A stretch of DNA of 37,943 bases, from positions 1 through 37,943 of IMG/VR virus record IMGVR_UViG_3300037780_000036; one strand, given 5' to 3'. Positions 21,805 to 30,657 of this stretch are shown piece after piece; position 1 is the first letter of the stretch, and each line of letters starts with the position of its first letter. This stretch comes from a virus. Taxonomy: Duplodnaviria > Caudoviricetes. The translations under genes and the position numbers were made by a program. Below the pieces are notes generated by a model, which did not search any database, was not told the origin of the DNA, and saw only the letters and a program-made list of their open reading frames with translations.

Positions 21805-22149
21805 TCAGGGCGTCTCGTTCACAAGCCCCCATCGTGACGCGCCCCTGAGATTGACGCTATCCACGCGGCGGATCAACCCCTTTTCGCGCAGGTTGTTCGC
21901 GGCTTTGGAAACGGCGTTAGGCGTTAGGCCGGTTTCTTTGGCGATCTGTCGCACGGTCATGGGGCCTTGCTTGAGGGCTTGAAGGATCACGTCGCGCGTT
22001 GTCGTGCTTTCCTCTGGCGCGGGCTTGGGCTTGATGTATGGCGCTTTCCAAGGCTCGCAGGACACTGAAACGATGCCGGTTGCAATGCCCTCGCCTATGC
22101 TTTGGCCGGGGATGGTGCGAACAATGTATTGCCGGATTGGTATGTTCAT
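21805..22149 (-). CDS. Winged-helix DNA-binding protein
   Basis: ILQALKQGPMTVRQIAKETGLTPNAVSKAANNLREKGLI. Confidence 0.85.
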   Translation of the reverse strand: MNIPIRQYIVRTIPGQSIGEGIATGIVSVSCEPWKAPYIKPKPAPEESTTTRDVILQALKQGPMTVRQIAKETGLTPNAVSKAANNLREKGLIRRVDSVNLRGASRWGLVNETP

Positions 22150-22778
22150 CACATGCTTTCCATCTGGTCGACGTTGCAGCGATGCACGGTGAAGGTCAGA
22201 GCCGCAACCCACGGGTTTGCGTACCATGCGGCGGGGCCGTGGAGGCTGTTCCAGAGATGATGAAATGCCCAAACGGTTTTCGGGTAGCCGATAGTTCCTT
22301 TATGGCCGCGCCAGCCGCCGTAGCCATCTGGCATCACGCCCTCCGCCGAAGCATCCGCCTCACTGATTTCCCGCAACCGCTGCACCCGCACGTCCGTGAC
22401 AACCAGCGTCAGGCGGGAAGCCCATCGGGGCATGTGGATGGATGGACGCCAGCGACCATCAGTCGGTTGTCCGTTTGCGGTTGCCTTGTAGTCCGGGCGA
22501 TAAAATCCCTCCTCGGCGTCGGCGCTTTCATGCGTCCACGCTTCCCGCACCCAGAGGCGGTCTCCGGGGGCGTAATCTGGATTGATGGTTGCGCCAATGC
22601 CCATGCCGCCAACAATGTTCCAGGCGCCGCCAACAGATCGCTCAGCGCGCCAGCCGGTAAATCTTGGGTTTGCGCCGGGTTTCCAGTGTATTTTTGCCAC
22701 CCGCCGCGTCTGCGTCTTGCGTCCATCCAACAGAGCGCGGACCATCGGCGCGGAAAAAATGATTGGCTTAGCTTTCAT
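22149..22778 (-). CDS. Conserved phage protein, ASCH/PUA-like
   Basis: PIIFSAPMVRALLDGRKTQTRR, GDRLWVREAW, WRPSIHMPRWASR, W.ANPWV motifs. Confidence 0.85.
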   Translation of the reverse strand: MKAKPIIFSAPMVRALLDGRKTQTRRVAKIHWKPGANPRFTGWRAERSVGGAWNIVGGMGIGATINPDYAPGDRLWVREAWTHESADAEEGFYRPDYKATANGQPTDGRWRPSIHMPRWASRLTLVVTDVRVQRLREISEADASAEGVMPDGYGGWRGHKGTIGYPKTVWAFHHLWNSLHGPAAWYANPWVAALTFTVHRCNVDQMESM

Positions 22779-23687: not shown

Positions 23688-24025
23688 GTCACCACCTGAA
23701 AGCATTTGATATCGTGGGCCTTGGAACAGCGCACCGCGCCGCGCGTCACGAGGCTGGATAGGCCGTTTTCCACCTGACGGCGCGGAAGATGCGTTGCCGT
23801 CATGACGTCTTGGATGGTGCGCCATTTGCCATCGGCTAGGGCTGCCATGATCTTGGGATATTCGTTTGACGATCCCCCCTTGTGCATCTCGGGAAGCTTT
23901 GGCGGCTGGCTTGGCTTCATGGCCTTGTGGATGCGGCGGGCAACTTGATCCTCGATCAGCGTTGCCGCGCGCGGGTATAAGAAGGGGCTGGCGAGCGTGA
24001 TTTCCTGGGCTTCGGCACTGGTCAT
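23684..24025 (-). CDS. Winged-helix DNA-binding protein
   Basis: IMAALADGKWRTIQDVMTATHLPRRQVENGLSSLVTRGAV. Confidence 0.75.
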   Translation of the reverse strand: MTSAEAQEITLASPFLYPRAATLIEDQVARRIHKAMKPSQPPKLPEMHKGGSSNEYPKIMAALADGKWRTIQDVMTATHLPRRQVENGLSSLVTRGAVRCSKAHDIKCFQVVT

Positions 24026-24345
24026 TTGATGCGCTCCATTTTCACCGATGAGCAATCCGGCACGCCGTCGATGGTGTCAAAGGTGATGCAGTGTGTGTCG
24101 TGGTTTTCTGGTTTGTGAGTGAATGCCCAGCAAAAACCCTCTTGCCCATACAGCGTTAGGGTTTTCCGCTTCGGCTCTGGACGGACGCGGTAATAAATGT
24201 TGTTGCACCAACTTGGCGTCGCCGCTCCCCAATGCTCCCCATACATGCTATTTTCAATCACCTTGCCCTCATGGTGCGCCAGAAGCAGCGCGCCTTTTTC
24301 CTCGGGCGTCATGTCGCGCCATAGCTTGGGTGTGTCTTGTGTCAT
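24022..24345 (-). CDS. Hypothetical protein
   Basis: MTQDTPKLWRDMTPEEKGALLLAHHEG; leader resembles the early-gene leader repeat. Confidence 0.75.
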   Translation of the reverse strand: MTQDTPKLWRDMTPEEKGALLLAHHEGKVIENSMYGEHWGAATPSWCNNIYYRVRPEPKRKTLTLYGQEGFCWAFTHKPENHDTHCITFDTIDGVPDCSSVKMERIK

Positions 24346-24398
24346 CTGTGTGTTCTCTTGTGTGTGGTGCCAGGCTCTGTGGCCGGGCTTGGGGGTGT

Positions 24399-24707
24399 TC
24401 AATGCAAAACGGCTTTTCCGCCCTTCATTTGGATGCCAAGAGATCGGGCGGCGGTGTATACTCCGCCTGTATTTTTCCAACCAATTGCTTTTGCGATTTC
24501 TTCCGCTGACAAACCAGCCCGCAACATCTGCTTTACAGTGGCACGCTTAGACCCGTCTCGCGCGCGACGGTTGATAAAGTCTGCTAGCGTCATCCCGTAG
24601 GTCGCGGCTATCGCTTCCATTTCTTGAATGCACTCTGCGCGTCGGCGCTGCATTTCCGCTTCAACCAACTTTTGAAGTTCTGCCATTCAGAGCGATTTGA
24701 TTTCCAT
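24399..24707 (-). CDS. H-NS/HvrA-like N-terminal domain fused to an HTH; in-frame TGA at codon 7 (restart ATG at 24686)
   Basis: GGAGA RBS then MEIKSL*MAELQKL...EMEAIAATYGMTLADF; C-terminal GLSAEEIAKAIG. Confidence 0.65.
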
Positions 24708-24755
24708 TACGTTATTCTCCATTTCTAGGCCATTGCCCGTTTCCATGCCTAGACA

Positions 24756-24980
24756 CTAGCTCCCCCCGTTCCGCCCGTCAACACCTTTGTGCGCCTTTGC
24801 CAAACTTTTATCATGCTCTGCCGTCGCCCATGCGTTTAGCCATCCCTGCCGCCATTCGTGATAGGGGCCGGGGTATGCGTCGCCGTCCCAAGGTGGGGAC
24901 TTGGCGTAGGGGTTTGCATCGATAGGCTGGCCCGCGCGGAATGCGGCCTGCGCGGCTTTGAAGGGGGGCAGATCAGCCAT
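24756..24980 (-). CDS. Rmf/CrpP-like small protein
   Basis: AFRAG.....NPY...EWRQGW pattern. Confidence 0.55.
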   Translation of the reverse strand: MADLPPFKAAQAAFRAGQPIDANPYAKSPPWDGDAYPGPYHEWRQGWLNAWATAEHDKSLAKAHKGVDGRNGGS

Positions 24981-25413
24981 TGCGGTTGCTCTGAATGCGC
25001 GCAACGCCAGCGGCGCGAAGGATTGCTTGCGCTTGTTCTGCAGATATGCGCTGGCGCTCCGGCTCAGGATCTTGCTTGGGAAGGCTTGCGGCGACCTTCT
25101 TGCCCCTCGCCTCTTTTAGTATTGCGACGACATCGCCAGGCGTAGGGCGCGCGCGCGGGTGTTCGCGGTTCCACTTGCGAAGGCCCCACAACACTTGCTC
25201 TTGCGTCCAGTCCTGCAATTCGTCGCACCACCACGCCAGTTGTGCGGCCCGGATTTCATCCGCTTCATGCGGCTGAAAATACGCGCTTAGAACTGTCTTG
25301 ACGTCAAAAGCAATCTTCGCCCGGTGTTCGGCTAGCTGCTGCGGCGAAAGCGATTTGGCGATCTGCGGTGTCGCGGGCGGTATCTCGCGCCGCATGGCTA
25401 TTTCGGTGCCCAT
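24973..25413 (-). CDS. Putative helicase loader (lambda P / G39P-like)
   Basis: W..EL.DW..EQV..GL..W......PTPGDV pattern; GGAGG RBS; overlaps the preceding O-like gene. Confidence 0.65.
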   Translation of the reverse strand: MGTEIAMRREIPPATPQIAKSLSPQQLAEHRAKIAFDVKTVLSAYFQPHEADEIRAAQLAWWCDELQDWTQEQVLWGLRKWNREHPRARPTPGDVVAILKEARGKKVAASLPKQDPEPERQRISAEQAQAILRAAGVARIQSNRNG

Positions 25414-25648
25414 CTTTTTGCCTCCAATACCAACCGGCTTTGATCGTCTGCCAGCCGTGTTCCTGCGCCATGTCTAGCGCCTCTGTGGCGTCACCCCCAG
25501 CCGCGTTGATAGCGGCTAGGGTCTTGGCGATCATGCAAGCCGCGCGCTCTGTCAGCGGCTTCCTGATCTTCTTGCGCCATGCAGCGAAGCTGTCGCAGGC
25601 TTCGCTGTCCGCGTGGTGCGCAAGGATTTGTGACGGCGTTTCGATCAT
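25304..25648 (-). CDS. Replication initiator-like C-terminal domain only (O/DnaT-like), no N-terminal HTH
   Basis: F..WRKKIRKPLTERAA...L......ALD....GWQTI pattern; only 114 aa. Confidence 0.65.
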   Translation of the reverse strand: MIETPSQILAHHADSEACDSFAAWRKKIRKPLTERAACMIAKTLAAINAAGGDATEALDMAQEHGWQTIKAGWYWRQKDGHRNSHAARDTARDTADRQIAFAAAASRTPGEDCF

Positions 25649-26388
25649 GCTGGATACCCGTCATGCACTACGCCATCCAGCGCGCGGCCCTTTGCCTTGA
25701 TCTCGCGCTGATTGCGGCCCTCCCATTGCTTGAACAGGAACGGCACGCCAGCGACTGCACACTGGTCGCGCAGGTTGCGAAACCAGTCAGGATTGACTGG
25801 CCTGTAATGCGCGCCGTTTTCGCCACCAGTGATCACCCATGACGGCATGATATCGGCCGGGATATCGCCTAGGTCACCGACCAGAGGCTCAGCAGACCAG
25901 AACGTGATACGCGCGGGAATTTTGGCAAGCGCCGCGCCTCGCCGCAACATTTCCTCGCGGTTTTCCGTAGAAACCCCAAGCCAGACGTTTGCATATCCGG
26001 CGCCCCAATCATCGGGCAGATACCGCGCAATGTTCTGCGGGCGCTTGGTCAACAAAAGCCAGTCAAGGTGCGGCGTGTTGCGGATCAAAAGCCATAATTC
26101 GCGCCGCCATGCCGGATCAATGCTCTTGTGATTGTCGAACACGTCAGCCAAAGAAGCGCAGAATACGCGCGGGCGTTCTCCCGTCTCGGCTGCTTGGCGG
26201 TTCCACTTCACGGGGTTGCCCCATGACTTTGTGCGCGTCCGTGGCGCATGTGCCCCCCAGCGTTCGCCGTTAAATCTCTTGTCCCATGCCTCTGCATAGC
26301 AATGGTCGCAAGCCGCGCTGACCTTGGTGCATCCAATCCACGGGTTAAAGGTGTGGGTTGTCCACTCAATACCGCTATTTTCTGCCAT
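25645..26388 (-). CDS. Phage Gp37/Gp68 family protein (DUF5131)
   Basis: IEWTTHTFNPWIGCTKVSAACDHCYA, VFCASLADVF, LLTKRP, WVITGGENG, FLFKQW motifs. Confidence 0.93.
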   Translation of the reverse strand: MAENSGIEWTTHTFNPWIGCTKVSAACDHCYAEAWDKRFNGERWGAHAPRTRTKSWGNPVKWNRQAAETGERPRVFCASLADVFDNHKSIDPAWRRELWLLIRNTPHLDWLLLTKRPQNIARYLPDDWGAGYANVWLGVSTENREEMLRRGAALAKIPARITFWSAEPLVGDLGDIPADIMPSWVITGGENGAHYRPVNPDWFRNLRDQCAVAGVPFLFKQWEGRNQREIKAKGRALDGVVHDGYPA

Positions 26389-26419
26389 ATTTCGCCCTCC
26401 TTGGCGTCTCCCATGTAAA

Positions 26420-26473
26420 GCGCGGGCAGGCAGGGGGAGGGCCTGCTTTTCGGGGATCAGCCTATCCCGCGCA
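26420..26473 (-). ncRNA. Structured leader riboregulator with an anti-SD loop (Proteo-phage-1-like, from memory)
   Basis: gcgcggg-a-tagg...cctg-cccgcgc outer stem, ctgatccccgaaaag junction, inner hairpin loop CCCTCCC complementary to the downstream GGAGGG RBS. Confidence 0.6.
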
Positions 26474-26509
26474 CGTCAATCCTTGCCGTTTTCGTCTTGC
26501 AGGTCAAAT

Positions 26510-26963
26510 CTTTTTTCTTTGCCTTCAATGCTTTAAGCTTTAGGCATAGTTCCGCTTTCCGCTCGGGTTGACCCCATAGGATCAAAGCGGCCTGCCCGTC
26601 AGCTTTAGCTTCGTATCCACGCGCTGCTGATTTAAGGCTCAGCCAGACCCGACCCCCGATCACGCTCGGGAAAGCGTCAACCCATATGCGCGCTTCTGGT
26701 GTGTCAGCACTGAGACCAGCACACCGGCCCGGAAAGTCCATTGCGCCCCGTAGGTCGCGCGGCAAAAGAGGCCCGAAGCATCCGAGGTATTTGGGAACCC
26801 CGGCTGAACCGCATCGCTTTGCTTTCAAAGCGTCAAAAGTCAGTGGGAAATGTCTTGAAGCCTGCCCGCCCGTGCGGTATATCTTCGTCAAGGGCGCGCT
26901 GCTTCCCACGGCGAGGCGTGCCCTTCAAGGCGGCGGTTGATGTTGTAAGCATCCCGCCGCCGC
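26510..26963 (-). ncRNA. Putative ~450-nt structured RNA (RNAII-like primer/origin transcript)
   Basis: Own promoter; many helices (cgctttg/caaagcg, ccgggg/cctcgg, cc-tacg-gg, ggtgtg/cacacc, gggttgac/gtcaaccc, gctga/tcagc); no convincing protein. Confidence 0.5.
26855..26883 (+). promoter_or_regulatory. Sigma70-like promoter for the antisense RNA
   Basis: TTGAAG-N17-TATATC. Confidence 0.65.
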
Positions 26964-26972
26964 TTTTCTTTC
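26890..26972 (+). ncRNA. ~80-nt counter-transcribed antisense RNA (two stem-loops and a U-tract)
   Basis: Hairpin aagggcgcgc/gcgtgccctt, then ggcggcgg/ccgccgcc followed by ttttcttt; begins ~6 nt after the -10 box. Confidence 0.65.
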
Positions 26973-26997
26973 TAAGCCATCTTAACGGATATTGCAA
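26969..26997 (-). promoter_or_regulatory. Sigma70-like promoter for the leftward structured RNA
   Basis: TTGCAA-N17-TAGAAA; same -10 hexamer as the early promoter at 33601. Confidence 0.65.
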
Positions 26998-27078
26998 GCC
27001 CGCCCGTGTCGCGGTATCGTTTCAGCGCGGCGCTTGCATCATGCCGCTTTCCTTTTCGGTTGCGCAAGGCCCCGGCGT

Positions 27079-27432
27079 TTACTCGTCGGGGCCGTTGCGC
27101 CTCTGGTCGCGGCGTTTCTGCTCTTGGCGAATAGAGTGCAGAATGGTGGTGTGATCGCGCCTTAAAGCTTGCGCAATCGCTGTAAGCGTCATGCCGCCAC
27201 GGTGGTGCAAAATCCACGCCAGACCCTGCCGGGCTTGCAAGGCGGGGCCGTCTCGGTAAGACCGGCCGCGCCCCGTGATATCGTTCCAACTTACGCCGCA
27301 CAGATCGCACCATTCCTGTGCCAAGCGAAGGTTGTCTCCGCGCAAACCAATAGAAATTTCTGCGGCTCTGCGCTTGTCGTCCTCGCTAAGCTGAGGAGTA
27401 TCGCGGGTTATGCTCGGGGCGCGGCGTTTCAT
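27079..27432 (-). CDS. DnaA domain IV-like HTH protein
   Basis: ARQ.LAWILH..GGMTLTAIAQALRRDHTTILHSIR matches the DnaA C-terminal signature RDHTTV.H. Confidence 0.88.
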   Translation of the reverse strand: MKRRAPSITRDTPQLSEDDKRRAAEISIGLRGDNLRLAQEWCDLCGVSWNDITGRGRSYRDGPALQARQGLAWILHHRGGMTLTAIAQALRRDHTTILHSIRQEQKRRDQRRNGPDE

Positions 27433-27436
27433 GGCG

Positions 27437-27895
27437 TCACCACGGCGCAAAAGGTATACTGTCCCCATCATCAAGCCCAGCGCCATATCCGCCCGCAGGT
27501 GCGCCCCCTTGCGGCTGATACCCGCCAGACTGGCCAGCATCGTCGCGCTTGCCGTCCAGCATCACCAATTCGCTGCGATAGGGGCGAAGCGCGATTTCCG
27601 TGCTGTAACGATCCGCGCCCGATTGATCCTGCCACTTGCGCGTCTCAAGCTGGCCCTCGATGTAAACCTTTGACCCCTTGCGCAGATATTGCTCTGCCAC
27701 GCGCGCAATAGCCTCGTTGAAGATCGAAACGCTATGCCATTCGGTGCGCTCTTTGTTTTCCCCCGTGGCCTTGTCTTTCCACCGCTCGGATGTGGCAACG
27801 CGAAGATTGCACACCTTGCCGCCGTTCGGGAAGGATCGAACCTCAGGATCGCGGCCTAGCGCGCCGATGATGATGACTTTATTGACGCTGTTCAT
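27437..27895 (-). CDS. ssb: Single-stranded DNA-binding protein
   Basis: [33 protein letters not shown], acidic DDGDSIPF tail. Confidence 0.97.
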
Positions 27896-28281
27896 GAAAT
27901 GACCCCTCTCATGGGTATGAAGACGGCTTCAACCGCCGTTGTGATTTCGATTGCGACCGCACCGCCCGGCACAGGCTCGCCACGGCTAAGGCTTAAAGAC
28001 CATTGGCTATCGTCTACCCCGATAGCGTCGGATATGCCGTCCAGCCCGCTCTTGATACTGGCTAGCATGTTGTCTAGATCGCGTCTGCGCTTGTCGGGCG
28101 GATGAAAGCATATCCGCAAATGCACGCCTTCATTTGGCCGACACCATGCCAAATCCATCGCCTCGCGCGCCACCGCCCAAGCGGCCAATTTATACTTGGC
28201 CCGGATAGGTGCCACCGCCCGCCTATCTTTTCGCGCGTTTGGCGATAAGTCGCTGTGCGGCCAAGGGATGCTAACGATCAT
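27892..28281 (-). CDS. rusA: RusA-family Holliday junction resolvase
   Basis: [34 protein letters not shown]. Confidence 0.88.
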
Positions 28282-28465
28282 TAGTCGGCCACCATTTCTT
28301 CAAAACGCCGCGCTCGCGCAGGTCAGATACATACAAGCGAACATCTTTTGCTTGGCATCGCATTTGAATGGCAATGTCCTCAATACCAAAGCCAGCTTTT
28401 AGTCGGTAATCAACCATTTCGCGCCAGCGAATAGACCGGACAGGATATGTTCGGCTAGGTATCAT
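28271..28465 (-). CDS. Small HTH-like protein
   Basis: GFGIEDIAIQM....DVR.YV..LRERGVL. Confidence 0.65.
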   Translation of the reverse strand: MIPSRTYPVRSIRWREMVDYRLKAGFGIEDIAIQMRCQAKDVRLYVSDLRERGVLKKWWPTNDR

Positions 28466-28715
28466 CAGAAAAGCGTCCCTTGCTCAGGCTTTGGTGGCGA
28501 AGAACGTATTGCAGCGCCTTTGCCTTGTCGCGGTTGTTCAGGTTCAGCCCGCGCCTCCACAGGGCGGATGTGCTCAAGCCATGCGCTTTCGACTTGGGCG
28601 CGGTGATCTCGACAAGCCCACGCGCGCCAGTGTTACTTGCGCTCGCGTCTCTGGCCGGGCGGGCCGAAAGCGAACGGGCCAAGCGCGCCGCATATCTTGC
28701 AAGGCCCCACATCAT
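28455..28715 (-). CDS. Hypothetical protein
   Basis: Coupled to the Cro-like gene by an ATGA overlap. Confidence 0.6.
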   Translation of the reverse strand: MMWGLARYAARLARSLSARPARDASASNTGARGLVEITAPKSKAHGLSTSALWRRGLNLNNRDKAKALQYVLRHQSLSKGRFSDDT

Positions 28716-28990
28716 CCTTCCCCGCCTCTGTGCGTGAAAATACCATGCGCAACGCGCGCGCGATGATCCGGCTTGTCAGTCAACAGATCGTCAACAGACA
28801 CCCGCAAGCCCTCTGCAATCCGCAGCGCCGTCCAGACACCTGGATTTGGGAATTTCCCGCTGCGCATCTCCGAAAACTGGCCTTTGTTCATGTTGCATCG
28901 CTTCGCCTGCTCGGCAAAAGTGACACCCAAGCCGCGCCACGCATCCGAATAGGCGCGCACGTTCGCGGCGAAAATTGGCGTAGGTTGCAT
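28712..28990 (-). CDS. XRE/Cro-like HTH regulator
   Basis: AGGAGA RBS; SEMRSGKFPNPGVWTALRIAEGLRVSVDDLL; no peptidase domain. Confidence 0.88.
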   Translation of the reverse strand: MQPTPIFAANVRAYSDAWRGLGVTFAEQAKRCNMNKGQFSEMRSGKFPNPGVWTALRIAEGLRVSVDDLLTDKPDHRARVAHGIFTHRGGEG

Positions 28991-29011
28991 TTGATCTCCT
29001 GTTTTTTGTTC

Positions 29012-29044
29012 TTGCATCTTGGAACGGTATGCGGCTATTGTCAA
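29012..29044. promoter_or_regulatory. Overlapping divergent promoters
   Basis: Plus: TTGCAT-N18-TATTGT; minus: TTGACA-N17-CAAGAT, interleaved within 33 bp. Confidence 0.7.
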
Positions 29045-29069
29045 CAGGCAAGCAACCGAAAGGCACGAC

Positions 29070-29717
29070 ATGACCGAGACAAAGCACGAAAGCATTGCCG
29101 CCGCGCTAGCCGCCGCGCAGGCTGAAATGGGCAAGGCCCTAAAGCAAGCGAACAACCCGCATTTCCGCAGCAAGTATGCCGATCTAGGCGCGGTGATGGA
29201 TGCTTGCTTGCCTGCGCTCAATCGCAACGGTATTGCCTTGATCCAGCCCACCATTGACGATGACGGCGGGCGATACGTCAAGACTGTGTTGCTGCACGCC
29301 AGTGGCGAAACGCTTGAGTGTCGCGTGCCGCTGATTGTGCAAAAAAACGACATGCAGGGATATGGCAGTGCCGTCACCTACGCGCGGCGCTATGGCCTTA
29401 TGTGCATGGCCGGCATTGCGCCCGAGGATGATGACGGAAACGCCGCCGCCAAGGCCGCGCCTAGCGATGATGTCACCGAACGCCCGCGCCAGCAAGCCAG
29501 ACAGCCCGACATGAAAGGCGCGGCAGATCACGCGCAGGCTGCGCTGGCTAACGCGGATAGCGTCGAGCAACTTGAGGCAATCTATCGAGACTTACCCGCA
29601 GGCGTGAAGGCGTTGCCGGAGGTAATCGGCACGGCAAAGAACCGCAAAGCCGAATTGCAGCCCAAACCTCAGCGCGCGCCAGATAGCGCCGATGCTGACG
29701 AAATCCCGCACCAGTAG
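29070..29717 (+). CDS. erf: ERF-family ssDNA annealing protein
   Basis: NPHFRSKYADL and GSAVTYARRYGL...GIAPEDDDGN motifs. Confidence 0.95.
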   Translation: MTETKHESIAAALAAAQAEMGKALKQANNPHFRSKYADLGAVMDACLPALNRNGIALIQPTIDDDGGRYVKTVLLHASGETLECRVPLIVQKNDMQGYGSAVTYARRYGLMCMAGIAPEDDDGNAAAKAAPSDDVTERPRQQARQPDMKGAADHAQAALANADSVEQLEAIYRDLPAGVKALPEVIGTAKNRKAELQPKPQRAPDSADADEIPHQ

Positions 29718-29725
29718 GACGCAAC

Positions 29726-30391
29726 ATGCAAAACACCGTTTTCCTTGATATTGAGACAATCCCCGCGCAATCATCCGACGCACGCGACCGCATCCGCGCC
29801 AGCGTAGCGCCGCCAGGCAACATTAAAAAGCCGGAAAGCATCGCGGCATGGTGGGATGAAAAGGGCGATGAGGCATTTGCGGATGCCGTGGCAAAGACCA
29901 GCTTCGACCCCGCTATGGGTCAAATCTGCACTATCGCATGGGCGGTTGACGATGGCGAAATTGACGTAGCGCACGCGCGCACGGCGGGCGAAGAAGGCAA
30001 CGTGATTCGGGCATTTTTCGGTTGCCTGCGCGACCATACGCGAAGCCAGTTCGTCGGCCATTACATCGGCGGGTTTGATCTGCGCTTCATTTTGTGCCGC
30101 GCCGTTGTTCTGGGCATTCGCATTCCGCAATGTATCCCGCGCGACCCGAAGCCTTGGGATGGCAAGATGTTTGACACCATGACAGCATGGGCCGGTTCGC
30201 GCGGGACAATTGGCCTAGATAACCTTTGCGCCGCTCTTGGCATTCCCGGAAAAGACGGAATGGACGGATCGCAGGTCGGGCAAGCTTGGGCCGATGGGCG
30301 GCATGAAGAAATCGCGGCATACTGCGCCGATGACGTGATGCGCGTGCGCGAAGTATGGCGCAAGTTTCAAGCCGCTGGATGGAACATTTAA
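29726..30391 (+). CDS. 3'-5' exonuclease (DEDDy, PolB-exonuclease-like)
   Basis: FLDIET, GH...FDLRF, DTM, YCADDV motifs. Confidence 0.9.
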   Translation: MQNTVFLDIETIPAQSSDARDRIRASVAPPGNIKKPESIAAWWDEKGDEAFADAVAKTSFDPAMGQICTIAWAVDDGEIDVAHARTAGEEGNVIRAFFGCLRDHTRSQFVGHYIGGFDLRFILCRAVVLGIRIPQCIPRDPKPWDGKMFDTMTAWAGSRGTIGLDNLCAALGIPGKDGMDGSQVGQAWADGRHEEIAAYCADDVMRVREVWRKFQAAGWNI

Positions 30392-30408
30392 CACAAGGAG
30401 ACGACGAC

Positions 30409-30657
30409 ATGACCGATGCAACCTACACCGTGACCGCCGAGGAACTGCGCCAATTCATTGAGCGGTATGAACACCTCGAAGCCGAGAAAAAGGACATCGC
30501 CGACCAACAGAAAGAGGTAATGGCCGAGGCGAAGGGGCGCGGGTATGACGTAACCGCCTTGCGCGCACTGATCGCGCTGCGCCGCAAGACGCCCGACGAA
30601 CTGGCGGAACAAGAGGCGGTGCTTGAGGTTTACAAGCAAGCGTTGGGGATGGTGTGA
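30409..30657 (+). CDS. gapR: GapR-like nucleoid-associated protein (DUF2312/UPF0335)
   Basis: ELRQFIERYEHLEAEKKDIADQQKEVMAEAKGRGYD...Y.QALGM. Confidence 0.93.
   Translation: MTDATYTVTAEELRQFIERYEHLEAEKKDIADQQKEVMAEAKGRGYDVTALRALIALRRKTPDELAEQEAVLEVYKQALGMV

Follow-up and report, generated by a model that had tools for sequence, protein, structure and literature searches.

A structured RNA family with a cis-antisense unit as a putative RNA-governed replication origin of Rhodobacteraceae-type phages and phage satellites

The R-loop origins of phage T4 are transcript-dependent phage origins that are used by T4's own replisome and are not known to be under antisense control, and the ARRPOF RNA is a large structured RNA from a region needed for plasmid replication. 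RNA-governed replicons have been described for two plasmid families, ColE1 and the marine RNA-based replicons (MRB) of Vibrionaceae plasmids, pB1067/pES213; according to the accessible text on the latter (PMC3035462), they comprise a 488-bp ori, a two-hairpin RNA I of ~68 nt and an RNA II of ~465 nt with an exchangeable 3′ part. In the literature at our disposal, with little subscription coverage, an element of this kind was nowhere described for phages or satellites (the accessible part of PMC6380287 included). Among the 10,000 candidate RNAs from phages in PMC10690425, the main text of which was searched by terms, there may be pieces of the module described here.

The stretch of DNA analysed (the window) is a complete siphophage record of 37,943 bases with direct terminal repeats. 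A preliminary description had proposed that its largest gene-free gap holds a long structured RNA overlapped at its 5′ end by an antisense RNA, in the ColE1 arrangement. The gap agrees with the window's ORF list (26389-27078), a comparison with that list only, and all the motifs that had been named are present where they were placed. A predicted sigma70-type promoter on the minus strand (26969..26997; TTGCAA at 26997-26992, a 17-nt spacer and TAGAAA at 26974-26969) would start transcription near 26962 and give rise to a predicted non-coding, RNA II-like RNA of ~420 nt (26540..26962, minus strand), delimited by comparison and covariation and designated type A. A predicted promoter on the plus strand (26855..26883; TTGAAG at 26855-26860, a 17-nt spacer and TATATC at 26878-26883) would drive a putative RNA I-like antisense RNA of ~80 nt (26890..26972, plus strand), composed of a variable-loop hairpin followed by a GC-rich terminator hairpin (26928-26966) and a U tract. 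The two-hairpin, U-tract-terminated RNA proposed earlier is upheld by folding, since the 86-nt RNA 26890-26975 (plus strand) reaches -45.5 kcal/mol (z -4.3) and 0 of 200 shuffles fold as well. The downstream half of a proposed CUUGAAG/CUUCAAG pair coincides with the antisense -35 box. Most of the long RNA is taken up by a core domain of ~265 nt (26548..26810, minus strand) with predicted multi-helix junctions and pseudoknots, closed by a helix between 26810-26803 and 26555-26548, and relatives of this core occur in satellites without the 5′ module. The element itself is real, its conserved part ending at about 26540 and not at 26510 as first drawn; a c(UACG)g tetraloop (26753-26748) and a G-tract (26657-26648) are present in the window, but both vary among homologues, and the comparison does not bear out the G-tract as a conserved G6 loop.

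Set against the published description of MRB replicons (PMC3035462, accessible text), the module resembles them as a ~0.5-kb unit free of ORFs and iterons, in its two-hairpin antisense RNA of ~70-80 nt that ends in a terminator and is complementary to an RNA of ~420-465 nt, and in combining a conserved antisense part, with variable loops, with exchangeable 3′ parts, phage phiGT1 carrying the 5′ module on another 3′ part. One feature by which MRB replicons are recognised, a two-stem-loop RNA I within a ~500-bp ORF-less and iteron-less unit, is seen here in the sequence; MRB replicons are also marked by a conserved RNA I unit of ~110 bp homologous to pB1067, by autonomous replication of the unit and by negative regulation through RNA I. 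In contrast to MRB, the module resides on Rhodobacteraceae phages and satellites and a truncated O and a P-like gene have been kept; blastn searches of a plasmid collection gave no Vibrio plasmid match to it. With ColE1 it shares a promoter, an A-tract and a hairpin at the 5′ end (NC_001371; PMC5043065, accessible text) and, at the level of motifs, an antisense RNA that has its own promoter and covers the 5′ terminus of a long non-coding RNA (26/26 sequences), as well as a predicted alternative pairing of the segment under the antisense RNA. ColE1 itself is further characterised by a persistent R-loop, an RNase H cut and priming by PolI. The module differs from ColE1 in that its antisense RNA has two hairpins and ~80 nt rather than three stem-loops and ~108 nt, in that its long RNA is ~420 instead of 555 nt long with a pseudoknotted closed core, and in that it is viral and comes without Rop. 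Profiles of the 5′ module, the A core and the B core found no nhmmer match in ColE1 600-1260, the Rfam model RNAI (RF00106) matches ColE1 at 73.8 bits and not the window, and resemblances to words of the ColE1 3′ end, noted by eye, were lost in the profile search. Rfam gave no ARRPOF or other match to the module, and when the covariance models of Rfam 15 were used only the neighbouring int-alpA and tRNAs passed the gathering cut-off, the module remaining unmatched. In its anatomy, then, the module would appear to work like ColE1 and MRB replicons, with no detectable sequence match to ColE1.

The window sequence alone proves little, because the long RNA by itself is not unusually stable (z -1.2) and a strict scan of the window listed neither promoter; it is comparison among homologues, rather than any single sequence, that carries the proof of the observation. 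Homologues were collected from viral, metagenome and genome contigs by scanning with proteins and patterns, and profile search recognised non-coding modules of ~460 nt in Rhodobacteraceae-type phages on 27 distinct contigs, the window (26540-26997, minus strand) included, to which a later locus survey added further members. The antisense promoter conforms to TTG(A/C)A(A/G)-17/18-TAT(A/G)T(C/T) in 26/26 sequences and the long-RNA promoter (TTG...TA) keeps its register by alignment in 26/26, both motifs persisting while the spacers vary. The shared 5′ module is joined either to a core of type A, as in the window, or to one of type B, and loci L180-L184 are intermediate between the two. In phiGT1, a cultured lytic Sulfitobacter phage, the 5′ module (79.7 bits) sits in a 640-nt gap upstream of the truncated O and is followed by a third type of 3′ domain (L138, 34575-34900); the module goes unmentioned in the accessible text of the phiGT1 papers (PMC7427195; PMC10386132: 0 matches for 'replication', 'antisense' and 'noncoding').

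With the window element, blastn returned only chance matches of 25-38 bases in phages and plasmids, and no small Rep-less plasmid carrying it was found in the plasmid collection; 42 of 43 gapped-pattern matches in GTDB contigs were due to chance, the one real match lying on a 5.6-kb Sulfitobacter MAG contig; the B-core pattern gave 0 matches in 401 class-level genomes, and a word search with the longer protein was empty. Judging from such relatives (phiGT1, the Sulfitobacter MAG contig), the host of the window phage is presumably a member of the Rhodobacteraceae.

The gene that follows the module differs from phage to phage and its neighbours are variable, and in five loci (L009-L011, L130, L132) the module is inverted with respect to all flanking genes, so that it must be more than a mere leader. 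In four loci (the window, L012, L037, L181) it is followed by an int-alpA RNA, which leads the variable gene that intervenes between module and truncated O (DUF5131, helicase-methylase or another); this RNA is absent from many module members and is not part of the module. In the window it is a separate 66-nt leader (RF02996, 26407..26472, minus strand, 42.5 bits in Rfam) of a DUF5131 gene (25645..26388, minus strand), whose place is taken by different genes among relatives, and a candidate promoter, TTGACC-17-AAGGAT, was read by eye near it (26507-26479, minus strand). Four module-bearing phages (L008, L012, L014, L037) encode a different short protein with an F-W-x-x-x-P-x-K motif and no Pfam match, which by eye resembles another HTH-less initiator C-terminal domain.

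Covariation argues for a conserved fold in both core types. Among the 11 type-A rows, eight helices (52 pairs) are 98.8% paired, 14/52 pairs are changed on both sides and 0/500 shuffles were as good, with slid controls at 37-44%, these controls ignoring relatedness and the helices deriving in part from the same alignment. In 21 type-B cores, both partners have changed in 29 of the 42 pairs given by RNAalifold. When helices were sought de novo, type B yielded 9 with two or more double-changed pairs against 0-2 in column-shuffled nulls, a loop pseudoknot ranking third, and type A yielded 8 against 1-4 in the nulls. The long-range pair GGGUUGAC (26683-26676) with GUCAACCC (26572-26565), which spans 26565..26683 on the minus strand and crosses another helix, is 100% paired in 11/11 type-A rows with 2/8 pairs changed on both sides, and only 1/20000 permutations equalled it in a cognate-versus-swapped duplex test. 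In the same test the type-B loop pseudoknot and a second loop-to-3′-end pairing scored 0/20000 each and the type-A loop pseudoknot was marginal (919/20000); the closing helices (1420 and 15404 of 20000) did not favour the cognate partner, and two controls were likewise not significant. The core also contains invariant unpaired words, frequent G-U pairs and tetraloop caps.

A further pairing concerns the part of the long RNA that the antisense RNA would cover. The segment alpha (GUGGGAA, 26903..26909, minus strand) lies inside the antisense-covered hairpin and has an alternative partner downstream, beta (UUCCCAC, 26843..26849, minus strand). Over 23 distinct pairs, cognate alpha-beta pairing amounts to -13.3 kcal/mol as opposed to -10.4 kcal/mol for non-cognate combinations, a preference attained in 0/100000 and 0/20000 permutations. 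The pairing dominates the short nascent RNA (at least 3 pairs) in 15/25 rows, and in fold computations with the 5′ part blocked, beta pairs downstream; no conserved partner for beta (gamma) was seen in the four segments tested. This suggests that the segment under the antisense RNA co-varies with its downstream partner, as in a ColE1-type switch.

How the remainder of the genome bears on replication was assessed from its gene content. A PHROG scan of 77 chosen ORFs of the window identified head, tail, lysis, Erf, SSB, RusA and exonuclease genes and no integrase, polymerase, primase or helicase; its sole replication match was a 114-aa ORF (25304-25648, minus strand). Six-frame searches of the window likewise yielded neither integrase nor AAA_25, and HTH_36 matched below threshold at 21871-21957 alone. 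Absence of integrase is not specific to module phages (0/6, against 0/5 in controls), and a phage-plasmid lifestyle was rejected since the controls lack integrase equally. The 114-aa ORF appears to be an O-like initiator cut down to its C-terminal domain: it matches only positions 222-306 of a 346-position O-like profile, its 15 best relatives are short (77-188 aa), and the more distant ones are mostly 220-350 aa long with this domain at the C-terminus, HTH_36 or DUF1376 occupying the N-terminus in 19/25 long relatives scanned. A fold search with the truncated O gave a best Z of 5.1 and weak matches to DnaD domains (Z 4.6 and 3.9). The overlapping downstream ORF (24973..25413, minus strand), which has no Pfam or PHROG match, is labelled a P-like helicase-loader candidate from its position. 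Other HTH proteins of the window (DnaA_C, 27079-27540; wHTH, 28271-28465, 21805-22272) might bind an origin. Hairpins at 27036-27102, just upstream of the long-RNA promoter and behind the DnaA_C gene, may shield the module against readthrough, and a GapR-like DNA-binding gene (Pfam PF10073) at 30355-30657 is common near the module in relatives. The GC skew does not switch at the RNA element but turns with the divergence of transcription near 28-29 kb, which is uninformative for a small, possibly unidirectional replicon.

Lambdoid O/P iteron replicons (phrog_678; L185, L187, L191, L213, L224) occupy the same genomic slot as the module; at module loci their O C-terminal domain and overlapping downstream gene are kept, whereas the HTH domain, the linker and the iterons have been lost and are replaced by the RNA module. 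In 80 viral loci with the O C-terminal domain, the module was present at 11/16 truncated-O loci (one of them with only the module's 3′ end, at a contig edge) and at 0/64 others (57 clearly full-length, 6 running off the contig end and 1 frame-broken); these loci are related, and because many are near-duplicates with uneven flanks the counts are not independent events. Of the five truncated-O loci without the module, three lie on contigs that end too early, starting 0.5-1.8 kb upstream; in L185 the module's slot is filled by a full HTH_36 O gene that has five iteron-like repeats, and L186 has the same truncated O as L185. Arrays of at least three iteron-like copies were found in 6/7 full-length O genes as against 0/3 module loci and 0 in the window, where 24000-29500 contains no iteron array; the hallmark of lambdoid O/iteron replicons, an N-terminal HTH with iterons in the initiator gene, is therefore absent from the window. 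The window phage and three other complete phages showed no self-encoded origin-binding initiator or iterons by a search whose HTH_36 component is insensitive (2/5 full-length-O controls detected), while truncated O and P-like genes remain. One of five complete phages checked, G404, carries an intact module together with a 164-aa HTH_36 gene with three iteron-like repeats (L288, 3241-4304 and 5563-5862) and a broken truncated O; its close relative L283 has the truncated O and P-like pair. G404 may represent a replicon swap in progress or a recent replacement, or else the module may do something else.

Cores also occur apart from the 5′ module. A B-type query matched 15 of 401 host-order genomes, with 13 cores lacking the 5′ module, one source contig and one chance match, and 4 of the 13 lone cores lie in att-bounded, capsid-forming islands of ~11 kb. 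These Rhodobacterales satellites (G215, G160, G266, G355; L157-L160, L168-L171) have no recognised terS or replication gene. Among all 118 ORFs of at least 80 aa in three of the core-bearing satellites we recognised integrase, terminase, HNH, capsid, protease, portal and regulator genes and no primase, helicase or Rep; five ORFs were scanned in the fourth, one being topoisomerase-like. Since att lies between integrase and core, excision would be needed to bring the core together with the satellite promoter. The B-core pattern occurs in 44 viral loci: nine carry the 5′ module, all nine having the truncated O and, beside the core, the O C-domain and P-like gene (9/9); 27 lie upstream of a satellite terminase without the 5′ module and eight are unassigned. 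A terminase-anchored set of 80 loci, kept from at least 205 found, contained 17 that were too short, two with the core and 61 informative core-less loci. In 32 of these 61, replication genes fill the slot before the terminase (25 AAA_25 helicases, six HTH_36 proteins and one VapE, counted from 68 of 126 upstream ORFs scanned), which identifies it as a replication slot for which the core is one alternative.

In 18 other core-less loci an 84-aa gene is followed by a gap of 500-630 nt; 16 of these gaps are conserved stretches unmatched by the A and B profiles, and two look, by eye, as if they held an HTH gene with repeats. The conserved gaps, between the 84-aa gene and terL (L346, L349, L356, L357, L362, L364, L372, L374-L377, L379, L380, L382, L384, L390), comprise at least two further hairpin-rich, apparently non-coding sequence types, which are candidates for additional RNA-origin families. 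The 84-aa protein itself (L157:9505-9756 and relatives) is a three-helix protein with a W-x-P-S-x-K-Q motif, whose gene immediately precedes the core in most satellites and is also found ahead of other fillers of the slot; neither Foldseek (E<=0.001) nor the named families of the Atlas offered a match. The core is also found on a plasmid with its own Rep gene and often adjoins terminase genes: in L139 (plasmid CP081164.1, 13870-14126) and L153 a B core precedes a lone gene for the terminase small subunit, next to VgrG/PAAR genes.

What stands of the preliminary interpretation is a non-coding, covarying long RNA, a 5′-overlapping antisense unit with its own conserved promoter, a co-varying alternative pairing, and an alternation, nearly without exception, with iteron/HTH initiators (in phages) or helicase/primase genes (in satellites); homology to ColE1 by sequence does not stand, the core being a closed pseudoknotted fold. 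None of the computable outcomes that had been named as contrary, such as conservation of the ORF or lack of covariation, was encountered. We therefore appear to be dealing, as far as sequence comparison can tell, with a real and undescribed structured-RNA family with a cis-antisense unit, with strong contextual evidence for a role as an origin, its function being putative. The module is probably an RNA-opened or RNA-primed replication origin under antisense control, in which the RNA likely starts DNA replication instead of an origin-binding protein, a plasmid-like arrangement that would be new for these viruses. From transcription onward, the steps of the proposed mechanism are modelled on ColE1 and MRB (PMC5043065; PMC3035462, accessible text of both). 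Host RNA polymerase would make the ~420-nt RNA, and the pseudoknotted core of this transcript would open the DNA, or prime it, near the RNA's 3′ end, the folded RNA staying hybridised as an R-loop near 26540; on the opened strand, the host helicase would be loaded by the retained O C-terminal domain and P-like protein. Switching the origin off would fall to the ~80-nt antisense RNA, which would sequester alpha, upon which beta would mispair and the core misfold. Speculatively, satellites could do without the antisense unit because their core would be transcribed only upon induction. The origin reading is backed by the loss of the initiator's DNA-binding domain and iterons and by occupancy of the replication slot. 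Against it, G404 carries both an intact module and an iteron initiator, the RNA's 3′ end is tied up in the closing helix and pseudoknot, which would compete with an RNA-DNA hybrid, no G-loop/C-tract R-loop signal was defined, and the reading does not account for copy control in a lytic phage. Also speaking against it are the want of a conserved gamma partner for beta, the dominance of alpha-beta in no more than 15/25 nascent RNAs, the window's other HTH proteins, and the occurrence of the core on a plasmid with its own Rep and often beside terminase genes. More tentatively, it is possible that the pseudoknotted RNA is the initiator itself, replacing the DNA-binding half of a lambda-type O, marking and opening the origin and recruiting the leftover DnaD-like O domain and P-like loader, and that the unrelated cores (A/B, the phiGT1 type and the other satellite types) constitute, in phages and satellites, a class of RNA origins that can be exchanged for one another.

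The replication-slot evidence would serve equally well if the core were no primer and acted as a folded scaffold, made either of RNA or of the single DNA strand that is displaced, to which primase or proteins that load the helicase are drawn in the manner of n'-pas/ssi, transcription only exposing it. The closed pseudoknotted core with its invariant unpaired words and the retention of the O C-domain and P-like gene beside it (9/9) are in keeping with such a scaffold, but the frequent G-U pairs and tetraloop caps fit RNA rather than DNA, and the antisense unit and the alpha-beta switch act at the RNA level; we give this explanation a small chance. That 27/44 viral loci have the core upstream of a satellite terminase, that other copies precede terS, that the element is independent of orientation and that its fold is closed could alternatively point to a large structured RNA or ribozyme outside replication, gated by the antisense RNA and concerned for example with packaging or late-gene timing. 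This leaves unexplained both the loss of the initiator HTH domain and iterons in phages and the absence of helicase and primase from core-bearing satellites, and the replication genes of core-less satellites occupy the very same place upstream of terL, so that we consider it a slim prospect.

Antisense-controlled leaders and attenuators have parallels in the repABC ctRNA, pT181-type attenuation, P4 CI and lambda OOP, and in most phages the module does precede the O/P genes and share their strand, with an alpha-beta switch and, in four loci, an int-alpA RNA behind it. Control of downstream replication genes in this fashion is nevertheless improbable: the five inverted loci have no co-oriented gene behind the module, the downstream gene varies, the core persists without antisense in satellites, neither a terminator nor a ribosome site closes the core, and a promoter and leader of their own seem to serve the downstream genes. 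An open frame of 150 aa (26457..26909, minus strand) spans the region in the window, and a 5′-3′ closing helix with a short antisense RNA is reminiscent of hok/sok, in which a small toxin peptide is paired with a short antisense. A protein-coding function is hardly credible all the same, because the start codon is kept in 0/10 homologues, each of which has 4-10 frame-shifting indels, divergence by codon position (0.22/0.29/0.28) reveals no bias and no protein family matches, so that the frame is spurious and the RNA non-coding; among sense-strand ORFs of at least 15 aa, the range covered by the survey, a stop column is shared by at most 6/11 (A), 6/14 (B) and 7/21 rows.

The origin reading would explain “Rep-less” satellites and phages, it is testable in the cultured phage-host pair phiGT1 and Sulfitobacter HGT1, and the module could provide compact, mutually compatible vectors for roseobacters. 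Should it fail, there is still a pseudoknotted RNA family of ~265 nt, so far undescribed, that comes with a cis-antisense regulator. If it is true, small tailed phages and phage satellites would harbor a third lineage of RNA-governed replicon, in which an RNA has taken over the job of a protein initiator while being coupled to one half of a lambda-type initiator.
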